Of a DNA stretch of 56,029 nucleotides, positions 2,701 through 44,415 are shown piece after piece. Source of the DNA: Candidatus Hydrogenedens sp. (GTDB taxonomy: Bacteria > Hydrogenedentota > Hydrogenedentia > Hydrogenedentales > Hydrogenedentaceae); contig JBMFRC010000021.1 in the NCBI GenBank assembly GCA_049968235.1, positions 1-56,029 of the forward strand, read 5' to 3'. A program made the position numbers and the translations under genes. The notes below the pieces were generated by a model. It did no database searches and had not been told where the DNA came from. It saw only the letters and a program-made list of their open reading frames with translations. Within the stretch, counting starts at the first letter, position 1. Every line of letters starts with the position of its first letter.

Positions 2701-4161
2701 TTATTTACCTTTAAAATATCCATTTTTTTCAATCCATCTGGCAAGATGAGAACCTATAATGTCAGTTTTAACATCCAGTCCGAGGGGTGTCATGTGGCAA
2801 ACATCAAAGAAATGGTCGGTGCCTGCATTAAACTCTTCAGCCACAGGGATGTATAAGATTTTTTCCTGTTCACAGAATTTTTGTAATTCTTTGTTGTATA
2901 AATTGATTATTTTCAGGTATGTATCAAAGGTTACTATTATGTCTTCTAAAGGTACCCATACATTACGAAGATTAAAGTCATAATACAGTTTTGCAATTAT
3001 CTCATACCATTTTATTTTAGGATAGGCGAAACTGCAAATAGCCATTTGAACTCCTTCTTTTTTACAGGCACAATTCATCGCTCCTAAATTTCTAAAGATT
3101 GTTTTTTGCAAATAATCCGCTATGTAATCATCTGATGGTAGCAGTTTCCGATTGAAAATCTGATTCAGGAAAGCAGAGTGGGTAAGTATCCTTTTATATA
3201 TGTTCGGCAAGTTCAGCCAATAAGGGATATCATGGTAACAGATGTCGTTAAAGGCATTGTAATAGACTAATAAATCAGGTTGAAATTGAAGGAATTCATT
3301 AATCCTGCGGACTTCACCAAAGGAACGGATACCACATATCCCTGCATTGATAACATCAATATTATTGGAATGAAAATATTTGTTCAATTTTCTCTCCATA
3401 ATATTGGGATAAGTCATATCATTGGAATTCCCTTCTTCCGTCGTTGAACCTCCGATACAAACAATACGGAATACTCCTTCAGGCTTGGGCATAGTAATGT
3501 CATCATCACGAAAGCCAAAATTATTATACTGGGTAATACTGTCTGTTTTTTTCCAGTTAGGTTTATAGGAGAAGAAGGGGACAAGACAGGGACTGTCTTC
3601 AGCAATAGGTGTGTTCGGAGGTCTTAATGATAATGGGTAGTTATCTCTAATTTCCTTTGCTAATAAAATGCTTCCTTCGGGTTGTGGCAAAATTTCTACA
3701 TGATAATAATAAGTGTAGTAATATTCATATTTTAACTGCCTGGAAAACGGTAAATGTAATGGATTCTTTATTGCTTCCAGAACAGAATTCCATGAAGGTT
3801 CATAATAGCCTGATGGGATACCTTGAATAAGGTTATATATATACCTCTCTATAACAGGGTCGCCATGGGATTCTATAATGTCTCCCTTCTTATCAAATTT
3901 CATTTCGGCAATACCCTGCAAGGTAAGTTCATGGTCTTTTTTGCAGATATAATTTTGGGGAAGGATTGATGGGGTTTTCTCTCGTTTCGGGATATTAACA
4001 TTTGGTTCTGAAGGTGTGGACAAATCATTAGATAGGTTAGATTTTAATTCATCTGATAATTTTATCATCCTGTAAACTTTGAGAGTTTGTTTCTCAAATA
4101 GGGGTTTATAAAGGTAATTAGCAGTCCTTAGCAGAACTCGTGTCCCTAACTCTATGGACAA
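2701..4161 (-). CDS. SGNH/GDSL-family hydrolase (esterase or O-acyl/acetyl-transferase-like)
   Basis: 486-aa ORF. Contains block I-like IVCIGGSTTEEGNS and a C-terminal DHFFDVCHMTPLG, which looks like the Asp-x-x-His catalytic dyad of SGNH hydrolases. It starts on a TTG; no in-frame ATG lies between the upstream stop and that TTG. It sits 80 bp downstream of the membrane-TPR gene on the same strand. Confidence 0.55.
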   Translation of the reverse strand: MSIELGTRVLLRTANYLYKPLFEKQTLKVYRMIKLSDELKSNLSNDLSTPSEPNVNIPKREKTPSILPQNYICKKDHELTLQGIAEMKFDKKGDIIESHGDPVIERYIYNLIQGIPSGYYEPSWNSVLEAIKNPLHLPFSRQLKYEYYYTYYYHVEILPQPEGSILLAKEIRDNYPLSLRPPNTPIAEDSPCLVPFFSYKPNWKKTDSITQYNNFGFRDDDITMPKPEGVFRIVCIGGSTTEEGNSNDMTYPNIMERKLNKYFHSNNIDVINAGICGIRSFGEVRRINEFLQFQPDLLVYYNAFNDICYHDIPYWLNLPNIYKRILTHSAFLNQIFNRKLLPSDDYIADYLQKTIFRNLGAMNCACKKEGVQMAICSFAYPKIKWYEIIAKLYYDFNLRNVWVPLEDIIVTFDTYLKIINLYNKELQKFCEQEKILYIPVAEEFNAGTDHFFDVCHMTPLGLDVKTDIIGSHLARWIEKNGYFKGK

Positions 4162-4240
4162 ACAAAGAACTATCGTCCATATTAATAGAGAAATGATATA
4201 TAGAATACTTTAAAAATTGATTTCATAGACAATATATGAA

Positions 4241-29379: not shown

Positions 29380-30052
29380 TGTCATTATTTGTGAAAATAT
29401 TCATAAGAAATTCTATGACGGCTCAAGAACACTACATATCCTGCGTGGGGTTAATTTTGAGGTTCCGGAGGGGAAAATTATGGCTATTAGCGGGCCCTCA
29501 GGAGTCGGAAAAAGCACATTACTGCATATTGTAGGGACATTAGACACACCAACCGATGGAAAAGTTATTATCAGTGGGAAAGAAATACAAAAATTATCAA
29601 GACATGAAATCAATCAATTAAGAAATAACGATATCGGCTTTGTTTTCCAATTCTATCATTTACTCCCGGAATTTACTGCATTAGAGAATGTGATGATGCC
29701 CGCCTTATGCAAAGGGAAAAGTAAAAAGGAATGTATCCCTCGCGCGGAGGAATTATTATACAAGGTGGGACTTAAAGAGCGAACAACGCACAAACCCGGC
29801 GAATTAAGCGGAGGAGAACAACAACGAGTCGCTATCGCCCGTGCTTTATTCAATTCACCACGAGTGGTCCTTACCGACGAGCCCACAGGAAATTTAGATG
29901 AGGAAACAAGTGCCGACGTTATTGATTTATTATGGAAATTGCATGAAGAGGATAAGATTACTATCGTCATCGTTACGCATGATGAAAGTCTTGCACAAAA
30001 GGCACACCATTGGATTTATCTCCATGATGGACAGGCTCATATCCGCAAATAA
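29360..30052 (+). CDS. lolD: lipoprotein-releasing system ATP-binding protein (ABC ATPase)
   Basis: Walker A GPSGVGKST, ABC signature LSGGEQQRVAIARAL and Walker B VVLTDEPTGNLD. It overlaps the lolC stop. An alternative ATG at 29372 (ATGA overlap) is equally plausible. Confidence 0.85.
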   Translation: MQYDMNNVIICENIHKKFYDGSRTLHILRGVNFEVPEGKIMAISGPSGVGKSTLLHIVGTLDTPTDGKVIISGKEIQKLSRHEINQLRNNDIGFVFQFYHLLPEFTALENVMMPALCKGKSKKECIPRAEELLYKVGLKERTTHKPGELSGGEQQRVAIARALFNSPRVVLTDEPTGNLDEETSADVIDLLWKLHEEDKITIVIVTHDESLAQKAHHWIYLHDGQAHIRK

Positions 30053-30338
30053 TGTGGAGATTCTGTTTAATCGCTTACTCATTTACCTACCTGAACAATA
30101 GATAAATACACACCTGATACATTTAGAGGAAAATAATGCTTCTCCCCTACAAAACTATAATTTGTTTTTAGCAAATAAACAGAAAGGTATGTATCTGTAA
30201 CAATGCAATTTTTCCTACCGAAGTAAAAACACCTTTGTCGTAGGCAAAATTAAGTGCGTAATCTGTTGAAGAGGATTGGTGGATTTATTTATTTCATTTC
30301 CATACTGTCCTATGGAGACTACCTACGGGTTCTTCTTT

Positions 30339-32225
30339 TTACTCAACAACGAAACCTTCCTTTTCGAGAAGTGCTTTAATTTCAGATAGTAGCATACCCC
30401 GCGAATAGACTGTATGGTTAGGAGAAATGGGGTGAAGTATCTCGGAAAGTTTCTTGCGGTGCATTAAATCGGCAATTATGACAGAATCCTGTGCCTCTAT
30501 TAAAATAACCGGGCGTACCTTTACTCGTTTAACCGTATGCATCCAATCTTCCATTGTGGAGATAACTATATCCGGAATTTGTTGCTTACGGGTATTCTGG
30601 AATAAGTATTGTATGAATTGGTTCGGGTCTGCACCACTCTGCACTCCCTTCAGGAAGGATTCCTTAGTAATTGAATATATTGAAACAGGTCCACCATTAC
30701 TTTTCTTTTGAGCAAAAAGTTCTATCCAGATTAATTGTAACGGGTCTACTTTAATTGTGGGAACAATAATTTCAAAGTTAGGCTGGACTATCCATTCCTG
30801 TTTTTTGTTGTATTTTTCTTTCAACTTCTTTGTAGGTTCTGAAGAGAATAAAAGATATTCCCCAATTTCACTGATACGGAAATAACGGTCTTTTTTGGCA
30901 TAACCAAATTCAATAATGCCAAACCAGAAGAAAGTATTATCTATAAAATGTATATAGTTCTTCTCATCACAATTGTCTTCGGAAGGTAAATATTCCCAGA
31001 AATTGTCTTTCGTTTGTTTTAATTCATAACGGGATAACTCACAATGTCGAGCGTAAACTCTTTTCCCAAACTCATTCAGAGAATACCATGTGTAAGGTTT
31101 TAATCCCTGTAACTCCGAAAGAGTTGCCGATAAAGATAAATTTGTTTCTTCCGCTTTGATGGCTGTTTCATAAATCTTTTTAAGTCTCTCCGGAAACGAC
31201 ATATTTACAAGTTCTTCAAGGTTTACAATACGGAGTGTGTTATCCACCTGTGCAAGCAAACCTGCTTTCTCAGCCAGCCGGACCAGTGTCTCGATAGGTG
31301 GATATGCATTTTCAGGCTCATCACGGGAAATGCGTTGTTCATCGGCACGAGTAATTTGTCCCGATGAGGTTATGCGTAAGGGAGATACTGCAATTTTGCC
31401 AAGAAGATGAGATATGCGTTCTGCCAATGAAACACCACAACTCTCAATACGGCTGATTTTAATATTTGTAGGTGTGATTTGTTGTTTCAATATCTCTTTC
31501 GATTCTTTTCTCTTTTCTCTATAATGCCGAATTTCGGATAGGATACTAATAAAACGGTTAAGTCTGTTTTGCCCATTGAAACGGAAAAGTTCAAAGAGAA
31601 CAAACTGATTGAGTAATTCATCTAATGCTTCTTCAATTTCTGTATTATTATATTTAGGAAACCTTTGCCGTATTTGCTGAACAGGGACAACCCCAGTCTT
31701 GCTTTGCCATAAGAAATCAAATATTTCCCTGGCTAATCCGGAAAAAGAATAACCCGCAACATATTCCAGAACAGATTCGGGGGTTTTATATAAATTTTCT
31801 ATGATTTCATTGGCTAATGACATCCACCCAATTACACGATTTATCTTTAATTTTTGTTCCAATTCCCTGCGTTCAGAATTGGAATAATTTTGTAACGATT
31901 TATAAATAGAATTAATGTCCCCCAGACTGTTCAAGTTATCCTGAACTCTACGAATAATAGGAAGAGCTTCCGGAACTACTTTAACGCGGTTTAAATCAAA
32001 AAAGAAAAGTTTTGGGTAAAGTTTGTAAATGTAATTAATCGTTTCTTCTGAGGTTTCAAGTTTTGCGGATAAATACCGGCTCGTTAGCCCTCCCCGGCTA
32101 TTCGCAGACAACTCAAGAGCCATATAAAACGATGTTAAGTCCATCCCTTCAAAGGCGGACAATAGACTATAACTATAACGCATTATCTCGCGGACCTTTT
32201 CAAAATACAGTTTACCTTGCACCAA
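30339..32225 (-). CDS. orphan hypothetical protein (628 aa) with a C-terminal segment reminiscent of the XPB damage-recognition / helicase-associated (PF13625-like) domain
   Basis: No catalytic motif was recognised. The C-terminal ~110 aa (...DWMHTVKRVKVRPVILIEAQDSVIIADLMHRKKLSEILHPISPNHTVYSRGMLLSEIKALLEKEGFVV) resemble the small alpha/beta domain found N-terminal to XPB-type helicases. It is convergent with lolD. Confidence 0.5.
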   Translation of the reverse strand: MVQGKLYFEKVREIMRYSYSLLSAFEGMDLTSFYMALELSANSRGGLTSRYLSAKLETSEETINYIYKLYPKLFFFDLNRVKVVPEALPIIRRVQDNLNSLGDINSIYKSLQNYSNSERRELEQKLKINRVIGWMSLANEIIENLYKTPESVLEYVAGYSFSGLAREIFDFLWQSKTGVVPVQQIRQRFPKYNNTEIEEALDELLNQFVLFELFRFNGQNRLNRFISILSEIRHYREKRKESKEILKQQITPTNIKISRIESCGVSLAERISHLLGKIAVSPLRITSSGQITRADEQRISRDEPENAYPPIETLVRLAEKAGLLAQVDNTLRIVNLEELVNMSFPERLKKIYETAIKAEETNLSLSATLSELQGLKPYTWYSLNEFGKRVYARHCELSRYELKQTKDNFWEYLPSEDNCDEKNYIHFIDNTFFWFGIIEFGYAKKDRYFRISEIGEYLLFSSEPTKKLKEKYNKKQEWIVQPNFEIIVPTIKVDPLQLIWIELFAQKKSNGGPVSIYSITKESFLKGVQSGADPNQFIQYLFQNTRKQQIPDIVISTMEDWMHTVKRVKVRPVILIEAQDSVIIADLMHRKKLSEILHPISPNHTVYSRGMLLSEIKALLEKEGFVVE

Positions 32226-32325
32226 TTGAACATAACATTATATAGGAAATGCTGTGCGAGTTCAAATCGCAAAGAAGGATAATGAAAAGCCATACCTGCT
32301 CATGAAATTGGTCTTTATTCCTGTG

Positions 32326-32379
32326 CTATGCAAAAATTGCAGAGTAATTGGTGAAAAGTGCAGGTTTTGCATAGAAATT
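32326..32379 (+). promoter_or_regulatory. pair of inverted enhancer-like dyads (ATGCAAAAATTGCAG and its near-reverse-complement GTGCAGGTTTTGCAT; TGCA-N5-TGCA cores), candidate UAS for the adjacent NtrC-type activator
   Basis: 32329-32341 tgcaaaaattgca and 32360-32372 tgcaggttttgca lie about 31 bp apart (three helical turns). They sit 45-90 bp upstream of the sigma-54 -24/-12 element. Confidence 0.4.
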
Positions 32380-32402
32380 TGCGATAAGTCGTTTATAATA
32401 CA

Positions 32403-32420
32403 TTGGCATAAGTATTGCTT
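32403..32420 (+). promoter_or_regulatory. sigma-54 (RpoN) -24/-12 promoter: TGGCAT-N5-TTGCT
   Basis: GG at 32405-32406 and GC at 32417-32418 have exactly 10 nt between them, matching the consensus TGGCAC-N5-TTGCW. It lies ~45 nt upstream of ATG 32467 and an AGGAGA RBS. An NtrC-family activator is encoded 1.5 kb downstream. Confidence 0.6.
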
Positions 32421-32466
32421 ATTTATTATAGGAAAACAAAAAACCTTAACAATAAGGAGAAAGAAG

Positions 32467-32820
32467 ATGAAACAGAGATTCGTATTCACACTAAGTTTAC
32501 TGGCAGTCGTCCTGATGCTGAGTGGGATTACTATGGCACAAGGAAATGGACAGGGTGCTCAGCGAGGTTATTGCAAAACCAATTGCTATGTGGACAAAAA
32601 TGGCGATGGTGTCTGCGATAACTTCAAAGACGCCAACAATGATGGTAGATGTGATAATTGCACATGCCCGGCATCCTGCGGGAAAGGTAAAGGAAACTGC
32701 TGTAGCAATTTTGTAGATTCCAATAATGATGGCAGATGCGATAATTGCCAAAATTCTAATGCCTACTATGGTAATGGTAGGGGAAAATGCAATAGAAGAT
32801 GTTGCCCTGTAAACAAATAA
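32467..32820 (+). CDS. small secreted Cys-rich protein with three tandem Ca-loop-like repeats (D-x-N-x-D-G-x-C-D-N)
   Basis: MKQRFVFTLSLLAVVLMLSGITMAQG is a Sec signal peptide. The mature ~91 aa carry 14 Cys and the repeats VDKNGDGVCDNF, DANNDGRCDNC and DSNNDGRCDNC. The RBS is AGGAGAAAGAAG. The real start is 32467, not the track start 32254. Confidence 0.65.
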   Translation: MKQRFVFTLSLLAVVLMLSGITMAQGNGQGAQRGYCKTNCYVDKNGDGVCDNFKDANNDGRCDNCTCPASCGKGKGNCCSNFVDSNNDGRCDNCQNSNAYYGNGRGKCNRRCCPVNK

Positions 32821-32839
32821 GAAACAAAGGAAAATCATT

Positions 32840-32878
32840 GGCTTGCTCTTTAATAAAAAGGGCAAGCCTTTATTTTAT
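32840..32878 (+). terminator. rho-independent terminator after the Cys-rich protein gene
   Basis: GGCTTGC (32840-32846), a 15-nt loop, then GCAAGCC (32862-32868) followed by TTTATTTTAT. Confidence 0.6.
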
Positions 32879-32908
32879 AATATAATTATGATACATTAAA
32901 GAAAATAT

Positions 32909-34246
32909 ATGTTCTGGCAAAATAGAAAATTACTTTTTGTTTTTACAGCAATTATTGTCGGCGTAATTATTTTTATTCTTCTGGTTTCTTTTTTACGAGA
33001 GCGACAGCATAACCAACAGGTCTTTGTAGAACGAGGACAAACACTATTGCAAATTCTTTCCTCCTCTTTATCACTTCAAACACGCATGGGCTGTTATCGT
33101 GCCCAGCGAGTTGTGGAAATAATAAATAGTGTTTCGTTATCCCCGGGTATTTTGTATGTAGCGTTATTAAATCATGAAGGGAAAATAATTGCCAGTGCAG
33201 GTGAAACATCCGTCTCCCCAATAAATAAAATTGCAAAAGGAAAACATATTTATTGGGATAACGAATGTGTTTGTTTATCACAAACGATTTCTATGGACGA
33301 ACTTCAAAAAGGTCGTCAACACCGATATGGAATGGCAGTATGTCCTGACCCAACATGTGCAAATGAAAGTATGATTCCCTGGAGTGAATGGGGAACGGGT
33401 CCTTTTCTTCTGATGGTTTGTCTGAATACTCAAGAATTGAAAGGAATGAACAAATCAACCTCTATTCGGTTTGGGATATTTGCCCTGTTGAGTATGGGCA
33501 TAAGTATATTGGGCTTTGTTGTTCTGGAATTGTATCAACGAAAAGAATTGTATGCTTATGACCTAAAATTAACCCGGGAAAAAGCAAGATATAACGAACA
33601 TTTAGCACAAATAGGGGCAGGACTGGCACATGAGACAAAAAACCCATTAAGCATTGTTCGTGGGCTTGCTCAGGCAATACAGGAGGAAGTGGAGCCAATT
33701 TCAGATGCATATAAATATGCCAGTAAAATAATTGATGAGACAGACCGTTCTGTCCGGCAGATAAACAATTTTTTGGAACTGACACATCCTCATACTCCCG
33801 AAAAGAAACCTATCTCTTTACAATCTATCATTGAACAGTTGTTGAATTTGACAGATACAGATATAAAAAATAAAGGCATTTCCATTGAAGTAAAAGGAAC
33901 AGATATAACCATAGAAGCAGACCCCGAATATCTTCGTCGTGCTTTGTTAAATCTCCTTCTGAATGCAATACAGGCATGTTCCGCAGGAGATAAAATTACC
34001 CTTCAAATAGAACCCCTCGGCGATTGGATAGCCCTTCACATTATAGATACAGGAGTCGGTATTTCAGCAGAAGATTTACCTCATGTAGTAAAGCCGTATT
34101 ATTCCAAACGGAAAGGAGGCACAGGGCTTGGTTTGAGTATTGTAAATGAAATAGTTCTATTGCATGGATGGGAATTTTCTATCCAATCTCAAAAGGGAGA
34201 AGGAACAAAGGTAACTATTTCCCATATCCGCCGAATTAACAGTTGA
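32909..34246 (+). CDS. sensor histidine kinase with Cys-containing periplasmic sensing domain
   Basis: TM1 LLFVFTAIIVGVIIFILLVSF. The periplasmic ~150 aa include ...DNECVCLSQ...MAVCPDPTCANES.... TM2 IRFGIFALLSMGISILGFVVL. HisKA LAHETKNPLSIVRG. HATPase ...GVGISAEDLPHVVKPYYS...GGTGLGLSIVNEIV. Confidence 0.8.
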   Translation: MFWQNRKLLFVFTAIIVGVIIFILLVSFLRERQHNQQVFVERGQTLLQILSSSLSLQTRMGCYRAQRVVEIINSVSLSPGILYVALLNHEGKIIASAGETSVSPINKIAKGKHIYWDNECVCLSQTISMDELQKGRQHRYGMAVCPDPTCANESMIPWSEWGTGPFLLMVCLNTQELKGMNKSTSIRFGIFALLSMGISILGFVVLELYQRKELYAYDLKLTREKARYNEHLAQIGAGLAHETKNPLSIVRGLAQAIQEEVEPISDAYKYASKIIDETDRSVRQINNFLELTHPHTPEKKPISLQSIIEQLLNLTDTDIKNKGISIEVKGTDITIEADPEYLRRALLNLLLNAIQACSAGDKITLQIEPLGDWIALHIIDTGVGISAEDLPHVVKPYYSKRKGGTGLGLSIVNEIVLLHGWEFSIQSQKGEGTKVTISHIRRINS

Positions 34247-34303
34247 GGTATGTTTATAGTATGATGAATAAAATATAGAGATGAAATACCCTTTGTTAAT
34301 TCC

Positions 34304-35614
34304 ATGAAAAAAGAAAACGCAGAAAAAGTAATTCTACTTGTTGATGATGATAATGCTCAGAGAGAATTACTCTCTCGCTATCTAACTCGGGCAGGCTTTT
34401 CTGTCCTTGCTGTTGCTAATTACAAAGATGCAAAGCCCCTTTTCGGACATGCACATCTTATTCTTCTGGATGTTCGTCTGCCGGATGCCAATGGGGTGGA
34501 GAAAATACCGGAGATAAAGGAACAGTTTCCGGGAATTCCTGTGATTTTGCTCACCGCTTTTATTGATGTCCGCGATGCCGTTCAGGCAATTAGACAGGGT
34601 GCTGTGGATTACCTTGAAAAGCCTGTAGATTTAGATGAGTTAATTGAAGTAATCCAAGAACAGCTGGGAACACTTCCGACAGATAGGACAGAAGATAGCG
34701 AATTGCCGGAAGACTTTATCTGTTATAGCACATCCATGCAAAAAGTGGTGCAGGATTGCCTTCGTGTATCTCCCACCAAAGCCACAGTGCTTATTACCGG
34801 AGAAAGTGGTGCAGGGAAAGAATGGATAGCAAGACTTATTCACCAATTTAGTGAGCGTAAAAATAAACCTCTTGTTGTTATAGATTGCACACATCTGCCA
34901 GAAACACTTGCAGAAAGTATTTTGTTTGGTCATGAACCCGGCGCTTTCACAGGGGCTATAACACAACAAAAAGGGCAACTTGAAGAGGCTAATGGAGGAA
35001 CTCTTTTTTTGGATGAAGTAGGAGAATTGCCCCTATCAGTGCAACCAAAACTATTGCGTGTTCTGGAAGGGTCACCTTTCCGAAGGATTGGTGGGACAAA
35101 AGATATACATGTTGACCTGCGTATTATTTCTGCGACCAATCGGAATTTAGAAACAGAGGTGCAGGAAGGAAAATTTCGTCAGGATTTGTTCTATCGCCTT
35201 CATGTAATCACCATTCATGTCCCTCCTTTACGAGAACGAGTAGATGATATTCTACCTCTGGCAGAATTTTTTTTGAAGCCGTATAACAAAACTTTATCAC
35301 CATCCGTACAGAGATTACTCCTCCGCTATCCGTGGTTCGGAAATGTTCGCGAATTAAGAAATGCTATGGAACGTTCTGCTATTCTTGCTAATGGTCCCAT
35401 GATTATGCCCGAAGACCTTCCAGAGATTATTCAAAATTATTCACCTTCCGATGAATCCCATCAGCCCCCTTCTTCATTACGATTGGATGAGTTAGAACGG
35501 GAGGCGATTCTTAACGCATTAAAAGAAGCAGGGGGAAATCGAACACGAACTGCGGAAATTTTAGGAATTAGTAGACGTACACTTATATATAAATTGCGGG
35601 CATACGGGTTATAA
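34304..35614 (+). CDS. sigma-54-dependent response regulator (NtrC family bacterial enhancer-binding protein)
   Basis: Receiver domain (ILLVDDDNAQRELL...LILLDVRLPDANG). AAA+ sigma-54 activation domain with Walker A GESGAGKE, the GAFTGA loop (HEPGAFTGA) and ESELFGHE-like ESILFGHE. C-terminal Fis-type HTH (GGNRTRTAEILGISRRTLIYKLRAYGL). Confidence 0.85.
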   Translation: MKKENAEKVILLVDDDNAQRELLSRYLTRAGFSVLAVANYKDAKPLFGHAHLILLDVRLPDANGVEKIPEIKEQFPGIPVILLTAFIDVRDAVQAIRQGAVDYLEKPVDLDELIEVIQEQLGTLPTDRTEDSELPEDFICYSTSMQKVVQDCLRVSPTKATVLITGESGAGKEWIARLIHQFSERKNKPLVVIDCTHLPETLAESILFGHEPGAFTGAITQQKGQLEEANGGTLFLDEVGELPLSVQPKLLRVLEGSPFRRIGGTKDIHVDLRIISATNRNLETEVQEGKFRQDLFYRLHVITIHVPPLRERVDDILPLAEFFLKPYNKTLSPSVQRLLLRYPWFGNVRELRNAMERSAILANGPMIMPEDLPEIIQNYSPSDESHQPPSSLRLDELEREAILNALKEAGGNRTRTAEILGISRRTLIYKLRAYGL

Positions 35615-35660
35615 TTTGTTTTATAATGAGGATAGGTAAATTACTTTTGTAGGACATTGT

Positions 35661-36908
35661 ATGAATATCCATGAACACCAACCATACCCTCCTTTAAGAA
35701 ATATCGAGGCATTCCCCATTCATCATCAAGGACAAACACTTATCTGCCTTCATGACCCACTGGGATATGTAAACACCGAAATTACACTCTCACCCGCTGC
35801 ATTCTTTATTGCCGCATGTCTGGATGGAAATCATACCTCGCGGGATATTCAACTGGAATTTGCTCGTGAATTTCAAGGGGCTTTAATCCCTCGTGAACAG
35901 ATAGAAAAAATAGTTGAGTTCCTGGATGAACATGGCTTCCTCCTAAATGAACGCTTCGAGGAAATTAAAAGCAAAACAGAAAAGGATTTTTTACAGCAAG
36001 TTGTTCGCCTTCCTTATCATGCAGGGCAATCTTATTCTTCTGCAAAGCATGAATTGGGTGCCTTTTTATCCACAATTTTTACACGAACAGGGGGACCGGG
36101 ACCTTTGCCCGATAAACAACAATCTTCTGAGGATTGTATGGTCGGTTTAATTGTTCCACATATTGATTTTCAACGGGGTGCTCTGGGTTATGCCCATGCC
36201 TACTATCGACTTTATCAATGTAAAAAACCGGATACAGTTATTATCTTTGGGGTAAGTCATCAAGGGGGAGAAACACCTTATATCTTAACACGCAAACATT
36301 ACAGCACACCTTTAGGAACTATTAAAACACATCAGGATTGTGTTGAGTATTTAGCCCAGAATTCACAATTCGACCCGTTCAAATCTGAAATTATGCATCG
36401 TATGGAACATTCCATTGAATTTCAGGTGCTAATGTTGAATTATCTCTTTGGCACAGATATTCAGATAGTCCCTGTGTTATGTACCTCTATTTCAGAAGAT
36501 AGAGAACTCTCCCCAGAGGATATTCCGGAAATCCAACAATTTCTGCAAACATGTATCCAATATATCGAACATAGTGGAGAGCGAGTATTGGTCTTGTCTG
36601 CATCAGATTGGGCACATGTCGGAAAACGATTCGGTGACTCGTTTGATATTACCGAAGATATTCAAATTCAGATAAAAAACCGCGATGACGAAGACATAAA
36701 AGTAGCTTTAAATATAAACCCGGAGCATTTTTTCCATTCTGTTATGAAAGACAAAAACAGCCGTCGAGTATGTGGATTATACTCTATTTATTCTACATTG
36801 AAAGTCATAAAAGGAACCGCACACCGTGCTGAATTTCTGCATTATGGACAAGCCCCTGACCCTATTGGCGGGATTGTCTCCTTTTCAAGTATTGCCTACT
36901 TTAAGTAA
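35661..36908 (+). CDS. fusion protein with an N-terminal PqqD-like (RiPP-recognition-element-like) domain and a C-terminal MEMO1 / AmmeMemoRadiSam-protein-B-like domain
   Basis: MEMO signatures: MVGLIVPHIDFQRGALGYAHAY (compare GxIxPHAGYxYSG), MEHSIEFQVLMLNYLF (compare EHSxExQLPFL) and LSASDWAHVGKRFGD (compare SsDfSHyG). The N-terminal residues ~30-95, EITLSPAAFFIAACLDGNHTSRDIQLEFAREFQGALIPREQIEKIVEFLDEHGFLL, align by eye with PqqD ([29 protein letters not shown]...DDVVEFLQ...WI). Confidence 0.6.
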   Translation: MNIHEHQPYPPLRNIEAFPIHHQGQTLICLHDPLGYVNTEITLSPAAFFIAACLDGNHTSRDIQLEFAREFQGALIPREQIEKIVEFLDEHGFLLNERFEEIKSKTEKDFLQQVVRLPYHAGQSYSSAKHELGAFLSTIFTRTGGPGPLPDKQQSSEDCMVGLIVPHIDFQRGALGYAHAYYRLYQCKKPDTVIIFGVSHQGGETPYILTRKHYSTPLGTIKTHQDCVEYLAQNSQFDPFKSEIMHRMEHSIEFQVLMLNYLFGTDIQIVPVLCTSISEDRELSPEDIPEIQQFLQTCIQYIEHSGERVLVLSASDWAHVGKRFGDSFDITEDIQIQIKNRDDEDIKVALNINPEHFFHSVMKDKNSRRVCGLYSIYSTLKVIKGTAHRAEFLHYGQAPDPIGGIVSFSSIAYFK

Positions 36909-36917
36909 GGTGTAAAG

Positions 36918-37916
36918 ATGAATAGGAATACTATTTTGCTTATATTATTCTTCGGAATTATTTGTAATTTGCCCTGCCAATCGTATCATACCTTGATCGA
37001 CTTACATACCGCACCGGGATGGGCTTCGGAAAATGGTGGGACAACAGGCGGAGGAAAATCAAAACCTACTACAATTAAAACGATAGAAGAACTTCAAACT
37101 CTGGTCTCTACAGAAGAACCACAAACAATACTTGTAAGTGGGACCATGGGAGCAGGACTTTCTACAAAAATAAAAGTAAACTCAAACAAGACTATCATGG
37201 GTTTAGACAAGGCACTTATAAAAGGCAGTTTTACCATTAAAGATGCAAAAAACATTATCATCCGGAATTTGACGATTGAGGGTCCCGGTGCCATTGATGT
37301 GAATGCTCCATACTGTATTACAATAGATAATTCAACAAATATATGGTTAGACCATCTTGATATATACGATGGTTAGGATGGAAATGTTGATATTGTTAAT
37401 GGTTCTAACTACATTACCATATCATGGTGCAAGTTCCATTATACTTCTGCTTCGAAAAATCATAAATTGTCAACACTCATTGGTAATTCAGATGAAAAAA
37501 TATCCGACAGAGGAAAATTGAAAACTACAATGGTATATAACTGATGGGCAGAAGGCGTTGATTCGCGTACGCCAAGAGTTCGCTTTGGACAGGTGCATGT
37601 CATAAACAATCTCTACACATGCACAGAAAATGATTACTGCATTCTGGCAGGCATGGAAGCAAACTTGAGAATCGAATATAATTTATTTGTAAATGTAAGA
37701 GAACCTATCAATTTATCTCAAAAAACATTTACTGCTGTTAGCGACTCAAACAATAAATTCCTATCAGTCAAAGGGAACACTGAGGGAAAAGGAGACGCCT
37801 TTAAGCCCCCCTATAATATAACCATTATCCCATTAAATAAATTAGAAATGATTATAAAAAAGTATGCAGGAGCCAATCTTCCTCATATTAAAAACGAAAT
37901 ATTCTGTGAACAATAG
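36918..37916 (+). pseudogene. pectate lyase (polysaccharide lyase family 1) with two in-frame nonsense codons (TAG 37374-37376, TGA 37542-37544) and no frameshift
   Basis: Signal peptide, then GWASENGGTTGGGKS...ILVSGTM...IKVNSNKTIMGL...IIRNLTIEG...IWLDHLDIYDG*DGNVDIVNGSNYITISWCKFHYTSASKNHKLSTLIGNSDEKISDRGKLKTTMVYN*WAEGVDSRTPRVRFGQVHVINNLYT.... This closely parallels Bacillus or Erwinia PL1 motifs (GYASxNGGTTGG, vWIDHxxfs...DGxxDIkxgSdyVTvSwn.F..HdKxmLiGhSD, RMPRVRFGqvHvyNNYY). The track reports only the flanking pieces 36918-37376 and 37593-37916. Confidence 0.7.
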
Positions 37917-37917
37917 A

Positions 37918-38618
37918 ATGAGACCTCTGAATAAGTCATTCGAGTTAAGTAGTATATTTATATAGGGGAAGAGGATGGGTGGAAAATGAAACGAGAAGAG
38001 GGAAAAGTGGTATATATATAGCAGAAGTATTGGGGGATGAATGACAAAACAAGGAAGAACTAAAAATAAAGAAAGGTCAACGCAGTATGGTATATAAGGG
38101 ATGGAGGGAATAAGTTTTATAGATAGAGATAGAGCAAATAGATTTTATATATTATGTGATGTCCTATCATAAACCGCCCCGTCGTAGACGTCTTTTGAGG
38201 CAGATGCAAGAGGTAATACCATAAAGGAATTTTGAGCAGAGGTGCGTATAGAGAAGAGTATATAAAGTAAACTGGGAAGAACGGAGACTTCCATCTTTAC
38301 TATTGTGTGCATTGTTGAGCAGTGAGTGATGATTTCTTTATATTCTCTTTGCAGGGAATTTAATCGGTGGCGGTAAAACGATTTTTTTCTACGTTTCTCT
38401 ATGTCTTCTATGGTGATTATATTTTTAATTCCAAAGGGAGCAAAAGGAGAAATATGCATAGACAAAAAAGATAGAAAAATAGACAGAAAATAACAAATAA
38501 AATGGGTAATTTTAGAGATACAGAATTTTGTATTTTAATTTCTCACCGTGATTTTATCTCATAAAAACATATATAACTTATACCCTTACCTCTTACACCA
38601 CTTGTTCAGAGGTCTCAG
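37918..38618 (-). repeat. MITE-like non-coding element, copy B (~701 bp), inverted relative to copy A; same TIRs TGAGACCTCTGAAYAA
   Basis: Left terminus aaTGAGACCTCTGAATAAgtc at 37918, 1 bp after the PL1 stop. Right terminus cttgTTCAGAGGTCTCAgtt at 38603-38618. The reverse complement aligns with 17618-18384, for example gtataagttatatatgtttttatgagataaaatcacggtgagaaatt versus gtataagttatatatgtttttacgagataaaatcccgatgagaaatt. Confidence 0.75.
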
Positions 38619-38710
38619 TTGCATAAAAAGATATTTTTTAATTAATTTAAATTTGACATTTGCGGAAATAAGTTATAAAATAAAAGTAATATAAAATAGC
38701 AAAATATGTT

Positions 38711-39733
38711 ATGCAAAACAAGGGGTTTACGCTGATTGAGTTGTTGGTAGTCATCGGGATTATTGCAATTTTGGGTGCTATTCTTTTACCGGCATTGGCA
38801 AGGGCACGTGAAGCAAGTCGTCGTGCAAGTTGTCAAAATAATCTTAAACAATGGGGTAGCATTTTTAAGATGTATGCTAATGAGAATAAAGCGGAACGCT
38901 ATCCACCTGTTCAGATAGAAATTATGCCTTTATCTGACCGTCCTAATCGTATGGATGCTTTTGCTGCACCGGGTCCGATGGTTCATTGTATTTATCCGGA
39001 ATACCTTACAGACCCTTCAATTATTATCTGTCCTTCGGATGCTCAGGACTCTATTCGGGATTTAAAATTTACTGAGGATACTTCTTTTGCTCGTGCAGGC
39101 GATTGGAAGTTTCCCTATTATCTCTGGGAGAAGGGTTGTGTTACAGCCATATCTGCAAGCTATATCTATTATGGATGGGTTCTGGACCGAATGGGTTCGA
39201 GACCGGAAGAAGTTGCGGTATTAAATACATTGCCGGAGATTAGTATTCTTATTAGCCTCTTAGGAGCGGATTTTTATGCAGAATATACTTTTCCGATACA
39301 GTTTATTATGTCTGCTTATCAGTTAGCATCGAACAATCTGGTTGCTGTGGAAGGATTATTAGACCCGGCATCGGCTACGGAGGAACAACGAAAAGCAATC
39401 CGTGATGCCCTTGACCAGGATATAACCGGTCCTTCAATTCAACAATATCATTGTGGGAATGGTGGTGGGAATACGGTGTATCGAATGCGGGAAGGTATCG
39501 AGCGATTTATGATAACGGACATTAATAATCCGGGTGTTGGAGCACTTGCGCAGAGTGAGATTATAGTTATGTTTGACCAGATAGGTTCTCAGCAGGGAAT
39601 ATCTTTGTATAATCATATTCCCGGTGGTTGCAATGTATTGTATATGGATGGGCATGTGGAATTTATCCGATATCCAACAAAAGCCCCTGCTATTGAACCT
39701 GTAGTTAATACACTATTGTTATTGTTTTACTAA
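38711..39733 (+). CDS. DUF1559-family protein with prepilin-type N-terminal cleavage/methylation domain (pseudopilin-like)
   Basis: [49 protein letters not shown] is a type IV prepilin leader plus the hydrophobic helix and SCxNNLKQ motif typical of DUF1559. C-terminal ...[15 protein letters not shown]. Confidence 0.85.
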
Positions 39734-39739
39734 ATTGTC

Positions 39740-39773
39740 TCCGGAAAAAAGGAGGTTATTTTTTTTGTTCAAG
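39740..39773. terminator. weak bidirectional terminator-like hairpin between convergent genes
   Basis: tCTCCggaaaaaaGGAGgttattttttttg. The stem is only 4-5 bp, flanked by T8 on the plus strand and an A-run upstream. Confidence 0.25.
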
Positions 39774-42665
39774 TAGTTGAAGGAATTGGGGGTTAACGGG
39801 ATGATTCCCTTTCTGACAGGTTTGAATAATTTCGCGAGCACGGTCAAAATCTCCTAAATAGTAATACACAATTGCCATTTGCTCTTTTACAAAATAGTTC
39901 TGGGGTTGGATTTGTTCTAATTGTGTGAGTGCCTTTAATGATTCGTTCCATTTTCCCTGTGCAAAATATAATGAAGCTAAATTTGACAATATTGTAGGTT
40001 CTAATGCAGGTTCTTTTCCCTGAACAGTTTTTAATATTTTTTCTGCCCGTTCGAATTGTTTCTGCTGGATTAGCATACTAGAAAGGTTCACCTGAATATT
40101 AATTAGATTGGGGTCTTTTGCGAGGGCTTTTTCCCATGTTTCTATGGCAGATGTATTGTTGCCGGACTGAGCATAAGCCATGCCTAAAAGGATGTATCCT
40201 TTCACCTCATTGGGCATCCGTTCTACTAATTTCTTTGACCAGACGACTGCTTCCGCGAATCGTTTTTCCTGTATGAGCAATTGTGCCAATATAACATAAG
40301 CATCATTAAAATGAGGTCGTTGCTGAATAATATTCAGTAAGGCCTGTATTGCTTGCTGGTTTTGTCCCTTTTCTGCTTTTTGAATGATTCTTGTTAAACG
40401 ACGGATATAGGGGGTCTCTTCGGTAAGCGAGACCATAGGTGCTAATAAATTTTCTACCGGAGCATACTGGTCTGTAAGTATCGGTGCATGATTGTAAGCA
40501 TGAAGTTGTTTCATTTTTTCTTCGGGGATATAATACCCATTTGAACCATACTTTGTAGAGACCCAGTCTTTTATCTCTTCCGCAGGTATTGGATTTTTTG
40601 AACAGATAAGAATGAATGTATCCCTTACCATAGGGTCGTTCATGGTGGAATAAACATATACATGTGGAAACACTTCTCTGAGAGTTTTATACATGGAAGT
40701 AATAAATTGAGCAAATTGTAGGCAATCTATCATATTACACATATAAATACCCCGGGGTGATAAAATTGTATAGATATCTTCTACGAACTCTTTTGTAGTT
40801 AAATGAAATGGAACGGTATAGTCGCTGAAAGAGTCATTAATAACGCAATCGTAATAACTTTTCTGTTCCCCTTTCTTTATCTGCTTCACTAAATCTTCCA
40901 CACGATTTCGACCATCCTGATGGTAAATAGATAGATGTGTAGTGTCAGGTAATCCGAATGCAATATGGGCTGTTTTTGTAACCTCTGGGTCTATTTCTGC
41001 TACTTCGATATTACTTTCTGGATATTCTACTTCTAAGAAATGGCAAAAAGTATATCCCCCTCCGCCGATAACAAGAATATTTTTAGGACCGGTATCTTGA
41101 AAAGCAAACCGAAGCCCTGCATCAAAGAAATGTTCATAGATACCCATTAATTTTAATGGCTGGCTCATATCTTTGCGGTTATGAATCATTTTATCCAAAA
41201 TAAGGTCTCTAATATAAGGGCGTTCGGGGTCTGGAATTCGAACTTTGATATAGTTGTAATGGCTTTCTTTCTCAAGGACAACATCAGGCGTATGATAGGT
41301 TTTTAGTGCCAATTGTATGGCGAGGGTATCCCATGGGAAACGAGGAGACACAGCACTGAAAAGCAGAAGAAGGCTGAACCCGAAATAAGGAATGGCAAGC
41401 CACCTGTTCTTTGCCATCCATAAAAAGAGTAGTGCCGATACCAATACGATAAACATCAGCGTTAAATTAGAACCCCAATGTGCAATGGTATAATATCCGG
41501 TTATCAAAACACCGATTATTCCCCCGACTGCATTCATTGCATAAATCTTACCAATTTTCTCCCCCTGAATTTCTTCACTTACCTCAGAATGAATTATACA
41601 TACTAAAAGGGGAGGTAAGGCTCCGAAAGCAATACTTGCGGGTCCAAAAACGATGATGGAATGTATAAATATTTGAACAGGCCAGGAAAGGTCCCAAAAT
41701 AAAGAATTCCACGGCAATAGTAAATGGGACAGAGGAATAAGTAATGTGGACACACTTGTCAAAAATAAAAAAAAGGTTATTACCTTTCGTGGGTTGAAAT
41801 GTTGACCTAAATATCCACCTATATATCCACCTGCGGAAAGAGAACCTAATACTACACCGATTATTGTTGTCCATGTGTATAATGAATTACCGAAATTTTG
41901 TGCCAAAAGTCTACCGGCTACAATCTCCAGTATCATTATTCCTGAACCTGCCCAGAAAGAGAGTAGAAGTAATTTATAAAAAGGTTGTGCATCTTCCCCC
42001 TGTGAATAGTCCTTTGTTTTCACTTGATTATTAGATGGTTCATTATCTAATTTTAAAATAGGTATAGATATGCTCCCCACTAAAAAATAGGCTATAGAAA
42101 TAACAAACAGAATACCTGAGGATATAGAAAGTAAGGTTGTATAAGAAAAGTGGGCAAGTAAAATATATCCTGTTGTAAAAGTTCCGATAAGACTTCCCAA
42201 TAAAGAAAAAGCAAAGAAAATACCTATACGGGTCCCTGCCGGGGAATTAATCTGTATTAGTAAATGGGTCAGGACAGGGGATATCGTACCTAACAGGAAA
42301 AAAGGGATTATAAATAGCAGAAAAATATGGGTAAAAATACGCCACTTCCATGGCATATTAAGAAGTAATCCGAAACTCCCAAGAAGTTGGTTTCCATAAA
42401 AAATAAGAAGAATAAATATAGATGCGGAAAGGAACTGAATCGGGATTGTGCGATGGTTTGGAAACTTATCAGCCAGTATCCCACCTATATGATTACCCAG
42501 AGCAATACCTGCAAGTGTTGTAGCAATAATTCCCGTCCAGGTGAATAAACTTTGTCCTAAATATTGGGCTATTACCCTGCCTGCAACCAGTTGCAAAAAC
42601 ATAATCGCCATACTGGAAGCAAACACTGTGAAATAAATTATTAAGGGCAGGGTTTTTAATTTCAT
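39756..42665 (-). CDS. fused MFS-like membrane domain / spermidine-synthase-like domain protein with C-terminal TPR repeats
   Basis: Two repeats of a multi-TM module (…VIAQYLGQSLFTWTGIIATTLAGIALGNHIGGILADKF… and …LLAQNFGNSLYTWTTIIGVVLGSLSAGGYIGGYLGQHF…). A SpeE-like methyltransferase-fold block follows (NILVIGGGGYTFCHFLEVEYPESNIEVAEIDPEVTKTAHIAFGL...YDCVINDSFSD). About 250 aa of TPR repeats close the protein. Confidence 0.65.
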   Translation of the reverse strand: MKLKTLPLIIYFTVFASSMAIMFLQLVAGRVIAQYLGQSLFTWTGIIATTLAGIALGNHIGGILADKFPNHRTIPIQFLSASIFILLIFYGNQLLGSFGLLLNMPWKWRIFTHIFLLFIIPFFLLGTISPVLTHLLIQINSPAGTRIGIFFAFSLLGSLIGTFTTGYILLAHFSYTTLLSISSGILFVISIAYFLVGSISIPILKLDNEPSNNQVKTKDYSQGEDAQPFYKLLLLSFWAGSGIMILEIVAGRLLAQNFGNSLYTWTTIIGVVLGSLSAGGYIGGYLGQHFNPRKVITFFLFLTSVSTLLIPLSHLLLPWNSLFWDLSWPVQIFIHSIIVFGPASIAFGALPPLLVCIIHSEVSEEIQGEKIGKIYAMNAVGGIIGVLITGYYTIAHWGSNLTLMFIVLVSALLFLWMAKNRWLAIPYFGFSLLLLFSAVSPRFPWDTLAIQLALKTYHTPDVVLEKESHYNYIKVRIPDPERPYIRDLILDKMIHNRKDMSQPLKLMGIYEHFFDAGLRFAFQDTGPKNILVIGGGGYTFCHFLEVEYPESNIEVAEIDPEVTKTAHIAFGLPDTTHLSIYHQDGRNRVEDLVKQIKKGEQKSYYDCVINDSFSDYTVPFHLTTKEFVEDIYTILSPRGIYMCNMIDCLQFAQFITSMYKTLREVFPHVYVYSTMNDPMVRDTFILICSKNPIPAEEIKDWVSTKYGSNGYYIPEEKMKQLHAYNHAPILTDQYAPVENLLAPMVSLTEETPYIRRLTRIIQKAEKGQNQQAIQALLNIIQQRPHFNDAYVILAQLLIQEKRFAEAVVWSKKLVERMPNEVKGYILLGMAYAQSGNNTSAIETWEKALAKDPNLINIQVNLSSMLIQQKQFERAEKILKTVQGKEPALEPTILSNLASLYFAQGKWNESLKALTQLEQIQPQNYFVKEQMAIVYYYLGDFDRAREIIQTCQKGNHPVNPQFLQLLEQKK

Positions 42666-42708: not shown

Positions 42709-44415
42709 TTAAGCATTATCACCGTTACGGTCTCTACGGATAATAAATATTGTCCCTGCAATGAAATATGCTAATGTGGGATAAATCAAGATGCGATGAA
42801 ACGATTGAAGATTTTGGATGAACCCATTTGTGCCTTTTAAGAACACCGAAATTGCCAGTACTAAACAAACCACCAATGATAAGCCGGCAATAATACCTGA
42901 CAGAACTAATATAGAGTCTATTTGAGAAGAAGATACTTTGTTCTTTTGTGTTTCTGACACAACTTTGGCTTCCCGATTTTCCGCTGTAGGAATAATTTCC
43001 TTTGCATCTGCAGGCACATCCCGGGCCCCCATAAGTATAGACAGCACGATATATAATATAGATGTCATAACCCACACAGGGACAAATAAGAAGAATAAGT
43101 GTAAAGTGCCCGTTTTTTCTAAAGTTATGGCAACAGCAATAGAGATTAACCAACTTAATAAAGCAGGCCAATTCATTAGCAATCGTTTCTTCTCTGCCCA
43201 GTAACGGGTAAGTCCTATTTTAGGGAATATCCAGTATTCTGTAAATGCTACGGCACCTAAGGGCATAAGGAGTAAACCATAATAACCTACAAAATCGAGT
43301 AATTTTGTAAATACAAAAGGAGAACAGGCTATAACCGTTGTTCCTGCTCCCGCTAATAAGGTTACCAACCAACGAGGCCAGCCGGGAGTAACAGCTTGTA
43401 ACGCTAATCCTGCGCGATACAAGGTGGGGTTTGATGTTGTCCAGCCTGCTAATACCACGGCAATTAATCCAGAGATGCCTAATGCCTCTGTTGCCACAGC
43501 ACCGGAATCCAATTGAGTAATACTTTTTTGCAGTAATAAAGCAGACATGGCTCCCATTATACCTGCACATATCCACGCTAAATAATGACCTAAGAACATA
43601 CCAAAAGCAGAAAACAAACCATAAGCGGATGACCTGGCATAACGGAAAATTGCCATATCTGATAACCCACCATGCATTGCCAGATTACAAATCCATGCAA
43701 AGGCGGAAACATGCCAGAAAGAAATCGGTTCTTTCCCATCCGGACGAACTCCGGTCCATATCTTTTGTGTGGCAATCTGCCAGAAATCGTTCCAGTTGCG
43801 AATATCAATGCCCGCTGCTGGTAATAAGGCAATTGCTCCTGCGATAAACATCAAGAACATCCATGGTGAACATACAACAGAAAATTGGGATAGTCGTTTA
43901 AATCCCAATATTGCGAGAGTAACCACAACAGCACCTACCACAAGAACAACCAGAACAAATCGGAAATCTGTTGGTATCCACTCTGTCTGGGCTGGTATTC
44001 CCAAAGGGACACGAACCGCCGAAGCAGAAACGGTTATCATGCAACCTGCCAATATACAGAATAAGAAAGCATTGAGGACATTGTATATTGTTGTTACCAC
44101 AGGTCCTGCAACTTTTCTTAAAAACCAGTATAATGTTAGTCGTGTTCGAACAGCAATTGGGGCACATATCAAAGTCCATGTCAATACTGCCATCAGATTT
44201 CCGAGCAATAAACCGACAAAAATATCATAAGCATTAACACCCCAACTAACAAACAAAGCACCGATAACGAATTCCGTCCCTGCAACATGCTCACCTGCAA
44301 ATAGCCCTGCAAAATATCTACCTGGCTGAAGTTTATCTTCGGTTACAGGTTCTCGCTCAAATTCGTATAACAAATCCAGTGCTTCTGTTGCTTTTATAAC
44401 TTTCTCTTCACTCAA
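42709..44415 (-). CDS. NCS1-family-like nucleobase/cation symporter (cytosine/purine/allantoin permease-type) with extra C-terminal TM helices
   Basis: 568 aa with 12 or more TM helices. The N-terminal region ...GRYFAGLFAGEHVAGTEFVIGALFVSWGVNAYDIFVGLLLGNLMAVLTW... parallels the CodB/NCS1 TM1-3 pattern (…LIGNLLLG…). The assignment is a motif-level judgement only. Confidence 0.5.
   Translation of the reverse strand: MSEEKVIKATEALDLLYEFEREPVTEDKLQPGRYFAGLFAGEHVAGTEFVIGALFVSWGVNAYDIFVGLLLGNLMAVLTWTLICAPIAVRTRLTLYWFLRKVAGPVVTTIYNVLNAFLFCILAGCMITVSASAVRVPLGIPAQTEWIPTDFRFVLVVLVVGAVVVTLAILGFKRLSQFSVVCSPWMFLMFIAGAIALLPAAGIDIRNWNDFWQIATQKIWTGVRPDGKEPISFWHVSAFAWICNLAMHGGLSDMAIFRYARSSAYGLFSAFGMFLGHYLAWICAGIMGAMSALLLQKSITQLDSGAVATEALGISGLIAVVLAGWTTSNPTLYRAGLALQAVTPGWPRWLVTLLAGAGTTVIACSPFVFTKLLDFVGYYGLLLMPLGAVAFTEYWIFPKIGLTRYWAEKKRLLMNWPALLSWLISIAVAITLEKTGTLHLFFLFVPVWVMTSILYIVLSILMGARDVPADAKEIIPTAENREAKVVSETQKNKVSSSQIDSILVLSGIIAGLSLVVCLVLAISVFLKGTNGFIQNLQSFHRILIYPTLAYFIAGTIFIIRRDRNGDNA

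Follow-up and report, generated by a model that had tools for sequence, protein, structure and literature searches.

The gene examined here lies in a stretch of 56,029 nucleotides from Candidatus Hydrogenedens sp. (contig JBMFRC010000021.1), referred to as the window throughout. It encodes a cytoplasmic protein of 415 residues that lacks a signal peptide, and it has a possible Shine-Dalgarno sequence (AGGA) 6 nt upstream of its ATG. The N-terminal part of the protein resembles PqqD, the fold of the recognition elements (RREs) of ribosomally synthesised and post-translationally modified peptide (RiPP) pathways, and the C-terminal part belongs to the Memo family of LigB-fold proteins (Table 1). 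We refer to the protein as RRE-Memo. A preliminary description of the window, made from its letters alone, had identified the same open reading frame (ORF) and the same fusion, which it considered unusual and placed in a sigma-54-regulated operon that could serve peptide modification or signalling. As described below, its assignment of the domains was right, and the story it built around their context was not.

The C-terminal part of RRE-Memo exhibited the features expected of a Memo domain. Pfam family PF01875, proposed in the preliminary description, matched residues 118-400 with an E-value of 4.5e-44 (151.1 bits; cut-off 27), and the NCBIfam model TIGR04336 (AmmeMemoSam_B) matched residues 116-400 (112 bits, cut-off 26). 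The three MEMO motifs that had been picked out by eye are all present (VPHIDFQRGALGYAHAYY, MEHSIEFQ and SASDWAHVG). A single-sequence phmmer search of the PDB with the whole protein gave no match at E <= 1e-3, and a profile of 121 sequences was required to reach human MEMO1 there (E 4e-16). The modelled structure led to the same protein, as Foldseek matched the predicted Memo half to human MEMO1 (7kq8, 3bcz) with an E-value of 4.9e-16 and a target-normalised TM-score of 0.79.

Residue equivalences to MEMO1 were taken from the profile alignment, and invariance was assessed in the set of 121 homologues. In MEMO1, H49, H81 and C244 are the crystallographic Fe/Cu ligands (PMC11081632). The residues of RRE-Memo that align with this triad are invariant, as are those that align with the second-shell residues H131, D189 and H192 (Table 1). 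The Memo domain is predicted from this alignment to have a complete MEMO1-type 2-His-1-Cys Fe/Cu site. RRE-Memo thus has the fold, the metal triad and the second-shell residues of human MEMO1 (PDB 3BCZ, 7KQ8, 7L5C) at ~21% identity, while MEMO1 has no N-terminal RRE and its eukaryotic signalling roles are not applicable to RRE-Memo. The superfold and the position of the metal site are also those of LigB-type extradiol dioxygenases (LigAB, DesB and aminophenol 1,6-dioxygenase; Foldseek E 1e-7 to 1e-4). However, these enzymes have Glu as the third ligand where RRE-Memo has Cys, their identity to RRE-Memo is only ~10-14%, and no aromatic-degradation genes lie near the RRE-Memo gene.

The N-terminal domain was harder to assign from sequence. 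No Pfam family matched residues 1-117 of the window's protein above threshold, and PF05402 (PqqD), the family named in the preliminary description, reached an E-value of only 0.06, below its gathering score. The same family was matched by 12 of 23 orthologous N-terminal domains, the best with E 3.4e-6, which makes the sequence evidence clearer across the family than for the window's own protein. Among NCBIfam models, the PqqD-related ScmD matched the N-terminus with E 5.9e-4 and PqqD itself (TIGR03859) with E 0.1. A profile of the N-terminal domain, which is strongly conserved across homologues and is preceded by a conserved P-x-P-P-L-R segment, gave only non-significant matches to PDB sequences (ZnuA, E 0.23; PqqD 3g2b, E 0.63). 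Because these matches are weak, a comparison of folds was needed.

An AlphaFold2 model of the whole protein, built with 121 homologues, had a mean predicted local distance difference test score (pLDDT) of 95.4 and a predicted TM-score (pTM) of 0.92, and a model of the isolated N-terminal domain contained identical elements (pLDDT 93.3). In both models DSSP assigned strands at residues 16-22, 25-31 and 41-43 followed by helices at 45-53, 60-70 and 78-90. The two domains are predicted to pack together in one confident model, joined by a linker helix. Solved leader-binding RREs were the top structural matches of the modelled N-terminal domain, and Foldseek was concordant with an RRE. The fusion called in the preliminary description is borne out by the models, the fold comparison and the PF05402 matches of the orthologues together. 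Its suggested comparison of an AlphaFold model with MEMO1 (3BCZ) gave a fold match with an E-value of ~5e-16; the E-value of 0.63 given above for PqqD (3G2B) is that of the sequence profile.

Could the N-terminal domain instead be an ordinary winged-helix module for DNA binding or dimerisation, making the protein a one-component regulator, or a structural appendage that is not directed at peptides? Ordinary DNA-binding winged helices scored ~5 in the fold comparison of the model. The recurrence of PF05402 among the orthologues also speaks against such a module, as does an independent study that ranks the fusion as a high-confidence RRE (PMC12710340). We therefore consider this explanation very unlikely. 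The N-terminal domain is predicted to have the RRE fold, a question settled by the modelled structure.

RRE-Memo proved to be neither rare nor restricted to one lineage. A search of protein sequences found 1665 homologues, of which the best 120 were all 386-446 residues long and covered at least 93% of the query, at identities down to 44%, and the nearest came from Candidatus Hydrogenedens. When one genome per GTDB species was scanned, 549 species genomes emerged as candidates; the best 80 of these all encode full-length proteins matching residues ~10-413. These 80 are spread over Hydrogenedentota, Methylomirabilota/Rokubacteria, Dadabacteria, Thermodesulfobacteriota, Binatia, Nitrospinota, Elusimicrobia, Sumerlaeota, Verrucomicrobiota, Acidobacteria and others, so that the full-length orthologues verified number at least 80 and come from more than 10 phyla. 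Searching with a profile of the RRE alone gave 1407 clusters at 50% identity, 643 of them at E <= 1e-10. Among the best 150, almost all were proteins of ~400-420 residues with the domain at their N-terminus, or shorter fragments, and the clusters that we checked were RRE-Memo or fragments of it and carry Memo. One protein of 986 residues (P0180) was considered as a new architecture and rejected. It consists of the RRE, the truncated start of a Memo domain and an unrelated region with weak TPR matches, and is probably a chimera, which may have arisen in assembly or as a decayed fusion.

Across 72 species-level sequences, mean pairwise identity was 41.7% in the RRE and 44.4% in the Memo domain, compared to 29.7% in the linker. 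Judged by these sequence identities, the RRE is about as well conserved as the catalytic domain. The best reading of these data is that RRE-Memo is a widespread, orthologous, housekeeping-like family. Nor is the architecture new, as the 2025 update of RRE-Finder includes RREFam044, "Memo_RRE", in its model table with its function unassigned (mSystems 2025, PMC12710340). The same update describes the combination of an RRE with a Memo-like protein (PF01875) as a high-confidence fusion predicted by AlphaFold and "unprecedented in RiPPs" (PMC12710340). The shared architecture indicates that the window's protein belongs to this catalogued class, for which the study gives no substrate, context or function. 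A fusion that is orthologous across so many phyla, and already catalogued, can hardly be called unusual, as it had been in the preliminary description.

The closest database homologues of RRE-Memo are named "AmmeMemoRadiSam system protein B" by NCBI. RRE-Memo could be the B component of such a system whose genes are dispersed, its A component AMMECR1 and its radical-SAM activase being encoded elsewhere, with the RRE docking either the radical-SAM partner or a shared substrate. Its TIGR04336 score is well above the cut-off of that model, and there is a precedent for such docking in PqqD, which is described as binding both its peptide and PqqE (PMC10906245). In contrast to a canonical B protein, RRE-Memo has the additional RRE and no adjacent A (TIGR04335) or radical-SAM (TIGR04337) gene. 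The absence of both partners from the window, stated in the preliminary description, was confirmed: no radical-SAM gene is present in the 56 kb, and an ad hoc AMMECR1 profile (archaeal sequences from PDB alignments plus a human sequence that was checked against the PDB) found none there.

We extended these searches to 88 further loci carrying RRE-Memo. The AMMECR1 profile gave no match in 86 of them, and matched only in two loci from Hydrogenedentota (L021 and L022), where the AMMECR1 gene is 2.5-4 kb away from the RRE-Memo gene. In these two loci AMMECR1 (TIGR04335, 155.9 bits) is paired with a canonical Memo of its own (TIGR04336, 158.9 bits) that is only ~25% identical to RRE-Memo. As the canonical A and B pair coexists there with RRE-Memo, RRE-Memo is a separate paralogue and not that B protein. 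The radical-SAM genes of the loci are MnmL/YtqA, HemW and SPASM-type genes below cut-offs, and none matched TIGR04337. We consider it quite unlikely that RRE-Memo serves a dispersed AmmeMemoRadiSam system, and its name is probably a systematic over-annotation that arises from a permissive cut-off of 26 bits, with the partners missing.

In these two genomes a sulfatase gene accompanies the canonical pair (L022 12203-15415 and L021 ~3680-5380). All three genes are on the strand opposite to RRE-Memo, at a distance of 1-4 kb. The canonical Memo beside AMMECR1 has a hydrophobic N-terminus, and no TIGR04337 gene was seen there. In three other loci (L004, L008 and L011), the upstream neighbour of RRE-Memo likewise encodes a sulfatase.

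To describe the genes that accompany RRE-Memo, we clustered the predicted proteins of the 88 loci and the window (89 loci), with ORFs called by a criterion based on GC content at third codon positions (GC3). No neighbour family occurred in more than 18 of the 89 loci. Within 700 nt of the gene there was no small ORF shared across lineages, and the clusters of small ORFs that were found there are single-lineage shadows of neighbouring genes. Neither a conserved precursor-like ORF nor RiPP enzymes were found near the gene across the 88 loci. The dedicated local peptide-modification or signalling system of the preliminary description is thus not reflected at the level of the family, which has no conserved partner genes.

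These results bear on whether RRE-Memo acts in trans, maturing a ribosomal peptide, or the precursor of a peptide-derived cofactor, that is encoded elsewhere in the genome. The predicted RRE fold, with leader-binding RREs as its top structural matches, would suit such a maturase, as would the finding that this RRE subtype occurs essentially only on Memo. In addition, uncharacterised radical-SAM/SPASM-type genes lie 3.4 kb (L015 8102-9274) and 6.4 kb (L023 17600-18781) downstream of RRE-Memo, or divergently adjacent to it (L033 3106-4290), all three below every NCBIfam cut-off; three loci are, however, too few for an association. Known RREs, such as those of TfuB1 and TbiB1 (lasso peptides), PqqD, TigE, LynD and NisB, share with RRE-Memo a weak but recurrent PF05402 similarity. 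They differ in having clusters that include a precursor peptide and the enzymes that define the class, neither of which accompanies RRE-Memo, and in being far less conserved across phyla. The broad, ortholog-like distribution of RRE-Memo and its highly conserved RRE are atypical of natural-product clusters, and overall we regard a trans-acting maturase as unlikely. RRE-Memo is a member of the Memo family and has a predicted RRE fold, and it is not part of a RiPP cluster or of an AmmeMemoRadiSam system as judged by the genes around it, nor, as described below, of a sigma-54 operon.

What, then, does lie next to the gene? We tallied Pfam families among 72 co-directional neighbours within 200 nt of RRE-Memo and among 91 control genes 4-9 kb away. 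The adjacent genes included 10 of the M20 family, 7 of M19 and 5 encoding Lon (22 in total), together with 7 for hydantoinase-B, whereas no peptidase family was among the top 25 families of the controls. The arrangement depends on the lineage. In Methylomirabilota/Rokubacteria, an ArgE/DapE-type M20 hydrolase gene overlaps the start codon by 4 nt (loci L038-L086). In Thermodesulfobacteriota/Dadabacteria, hydantoinase-B is upstream and an M19 dipeptidase downstream (L042-L079). In a group that contains Syntrophorhabdus, Lon is 4-18 nt upstream (L048-L083), and in one Planctomycetota genome (L006) a Tricorn protease gene is upstream. Adjacent genes for amide-bond hydrolases in four lineages are suggestive of a setting in peptide or protein turnover. 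The Methylomirabilota operon also encodes three small uncharacterised proteins, one of ~110 residues without matches, one DUF1285-like and one PCYCGC-like.

A small membrane ORF of 106-119 residues is located just 3' of RRE-Memo in the group of loci at 70% identity (Table 1); it contains a C-x7-C-P-I-C motif and has R-A-P-P at its C-terminus. In one of them (L004) the public gene calls have a 60-residue gene on the opposite strand instead. We considered this ORF as a partner and set it aside, as it occurs in four 70%-identical relatives and is missing from the window.

In the window, RRE-Memo directly follows genes for a histidine kinase and an NtrC-type sigma-54 activator, and a gene for a Cys-rich secreted protein lies 2.8 kb upstream of it, both as the preliminary description had stated. 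The Cys-rich gene does have the sigma-54-like promoter ascribed to it, preceded by two enhancer-like palindromes (Table 1). The encoded protein combines a Sec-type signal peptide with three calcium-binding-like repeats (D-x-N-x-D-G-x-C-D-N) and has no Pfam or NCBIfam match. A terminator directly follows the ORF. The same layout is found in a related locus (L009, 87% identical), with a perfect TGGCAC-N5-TTGCT site and a hairpin of its own. As it has its own promoter and its own terminator, in a layout kept in L009, the Cys-rich gene forms a monocistronic sigma-54 unit by itself, and the kinase/activator pair most likely controls this adjacent gene.

Table 1. Features of the RRE-Memo gene and its surroundings in the window, with an ORF of related loci in the last row.
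Feature	Position	Strand	Remarks
RRE-Memo fusion gene, 415 residues	35661..36908	+	Product cytoplasmic, without signal peptide
N-terminal RRE (PqqD-fold) domain, residues ~8-95	35682..35945	+	Predicted; structure models, profiles
Linker helix, residues 97-112	35949..35996	+	Lowest conservation (29.7% mean pairwise identity)
Memo (LigB-fold) domain, residues 118-415	36012..36905	+	Pfam, NCBIfam, Foldseek, profile alignment
His167 codon	36159..36161	+	Aligns with MEMO1 metal ligand H49; invariant in 121 homologues
His200 codon	36258..36260	+	Aligns with MEMO1 metal ligand H81; invariant in 121 homologues
Cys371 codon	36771..36773	+	Aligns with MEMO1 metal ligand C244; invariant in 121 homologues
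Second-shell active-site His250, Asp316, His319	36408..36617	+	Align with MEMO1 H131, D189, H192; invariant in 121 homologues
Histidine kinase gene	32909..34246	+	Neighbour, not part of the feature
NtrC-type sigma-54 activator gene	34304..35614	+	Neighbour, not part of the feature
Independent sigma-54 unit	32329..32868	+	Neighbour, not part of the feature
Two TGCA-N5-TGCA palindromes	32329-32341 and 32359-32371		Enhancer-like
-24/-12 site, TGGCAT-N5-TTGC	32404..32418		5' of the Cys-rich ORF
Cys-rich secreted ORF, 117 residues	32467..32820	+	ATG at 32467
Terminator	32840..32868		12-bp stem, directly 3' of the Cys-rich ORF
CPIC-motif membrane ORFs	L004 11349-11672, L008 9322-9642, L010 1465-1785, L011 11301-11660		In related loci

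This arrangement had prompted the proposal of a local system for peptide modification or signalling under sigma-54 control, in which RRE-Memo would be the tailoring enzyme and the Cys-rich protein the substrate or signal. The four genes are on one strand with short gaps, RRE-Memo starting 46 nt past the activator gene with no terminator predicted between the two; a good sigma-54 site and enhancer-like palindromes precede the Cys-rich gene; and the arrangement is retained in L009. However, no sigma-54-like -24/-12 site was found in the gap before RRE-Memo (35615..35660), and the strong terminator isolates the Cys-rich gene both in the window and in L009. The Cys-rich product would be exported through Sec, whereas RRE-Memo is cytoplasmic. 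Sigma-54 activators were not enriched beside RRE-Memo either (2 of the 72 adjacent co-directional genes, compared to 4 of the 91 controls). The kinase, the activator, the Cys-rich gene and a neighbouring pectate lyase gene accompany RRE-Memo in only one of the 88 loci, L009, so that the arrangement is confined to a single genus-level pair (87%) and is missing from relatives at 75% and 70% identity and from 86 other loci. We consider it highly improbable that a local system of this kind exists, and neither a sigma-54-regulated operon nor the Cys-rich protein as a substrate or signal, as the preliminary description had it, is upheld. Read-through from the kinase and activator genes into RRE-Memo possibly occurs, in this genus only, and would not imply dependence on sigma-54. 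The sequence ~30 nt 5' of the RRE-Memo ATG contains a TATAAT motif that is shared with L009.

The neighbours of RRE-Memo in more distant relatives are consistent with a late arrival of these genes. At 75% identity (L007) they are unrelated to those of the window, and in the group at 70% identity (L004, L008, L010 and L011) the gene lies between sulfatase and DUF1559/N-methyl genes, the latter of which is also present 3' of it in the window (38711..39733). As the sigma-54 cassette is confined to the window and L009, it is a genus-level acquisition beside an older gene.

Several other observations concern the remainder of the window. The pectate lyase gene directly 3' of RRE-Memo (36918-37916) is interrupted by two in-frame nonsense codons without a frameshift, TAG at 37374 for a Gln and TGA at 37542 for a Trp of the intact orthologue in L009. 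It is a recent pseudogene or a variant of the population or the assembly, and recoding is unlikely because the two stop codons differ. Small ORFs in the gap at 37917..38710 were looked at as local partners and dropped, and an Rfam search of 30000..40000 found nothing. Two long ORFs, at 14536-17445 (969 residues) and 42709-44415 (568 residues), were not matched by any Pfam family (E <= 1e-3 or 1e-4). Elsewhere the window has the gene content of an ordinary chromosome, including rpsB-tsf-pyrH-frr-uppS-cdsA-prfB-lysS, lolE/lolD-like genes, a secretin and a GH38 gene.

Taken together, the data are best explained if RRE-Memo is a cytoplasmic, two-domain, housekeeping-like orphan metalloenzyme that is directed at peptides and is possibly tied to peptide turnover, a reading to which we assign a probability of roughly 55%. 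Like solved RREs, the RRE would bind a stretch of peptide in extended form as an additional beta-strand, and would present a neighbouring part of the captured peptide to the Memo metal centre. There a metal-dependent transformation, probably redox or oxygen-dependent, or the handling of a metal, may follow. Given the high conservation of the RRE and the lack of a precursor gene close by, its probable ligand is a peptide or protein segment that is conserved in cells, or a group of peptides derived from proteolysis, rather than the leader of a cluster-specific RiPP. The M20, M19, hydantoinase-B, Lon and Tricorn neighbours would place the enzyme physiologically in peptide or protein turnover. MEMO1 offers a parallel, since it binds a phosphopeptide in its active-site cleft (Qiu 2008, as cited in PMC7694686), to which that of RRE-Memo would be equivalent, and glutathione has been located beside its iron (PMC11081632). 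By analogy, both would be consistent with small-peptide ligands for RRE-Memo.

Several points weigh against this interpretation. The adjacency of hydrolase genes amounts to only 3-4 independent lineage events that were spotted post hoc, and Hydrogenedentota, the window's own phylum, does not show it. The M20 neighbour is of the ArgE/DapE type, a deacylase whose substrate need not be a peptide, and Lon may simply be a housekeeping neighbour. To our knowledge, neither a substrate, an activity nor peptide binding has so far been demonstrated for any member of the RRE-Memo family, and we know of no demonstrated catalytic activity of MEMO1 itself.

More tentatively, the peptide-directed metalloenzyme that we favour could be a housekeeping enzyme of turnover proper, in which peptides recognised by the RRE are processed at the MEMO1-type Fe/Cu centre and hydrolases of the M20, M19, Lon and Tricorn types act as its partners. 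Its role might then be to remove or transform a residue or a modification that blocks further degradation. We think this narrower version doubtful; if true, it would be the first use of an RRE outside natural-product biosynthesis, and would offer a tractable bacterial handle on the biochemistry of the Memo family, human MEMO1 included.

Human MEMO1 is implicated in the motility of cancer cells and in iron homeostasis. A survey of the Memo/LigB superfamily by Burroughs et al. in 2019 reportedly linked Memo to the modification of nucleotide bases and isoprenoids. That Memo is permanently fused to a predicted peptide-docking domain across more than 10 phyla is an argument for peptides being the native substrates of the RRE-Memo branch at least, and the fused RRE would be a built-in affinity handle for discovering them. 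For annotation, the consequence is that the label "AmmeMemoRadiSam system protein B" reaches a paralogue without the partners of that system. The presence of an RRE need not signal a RiPP cluster, which is relevant to genome-mining pipelines that use RREs as beacons for such clusters.

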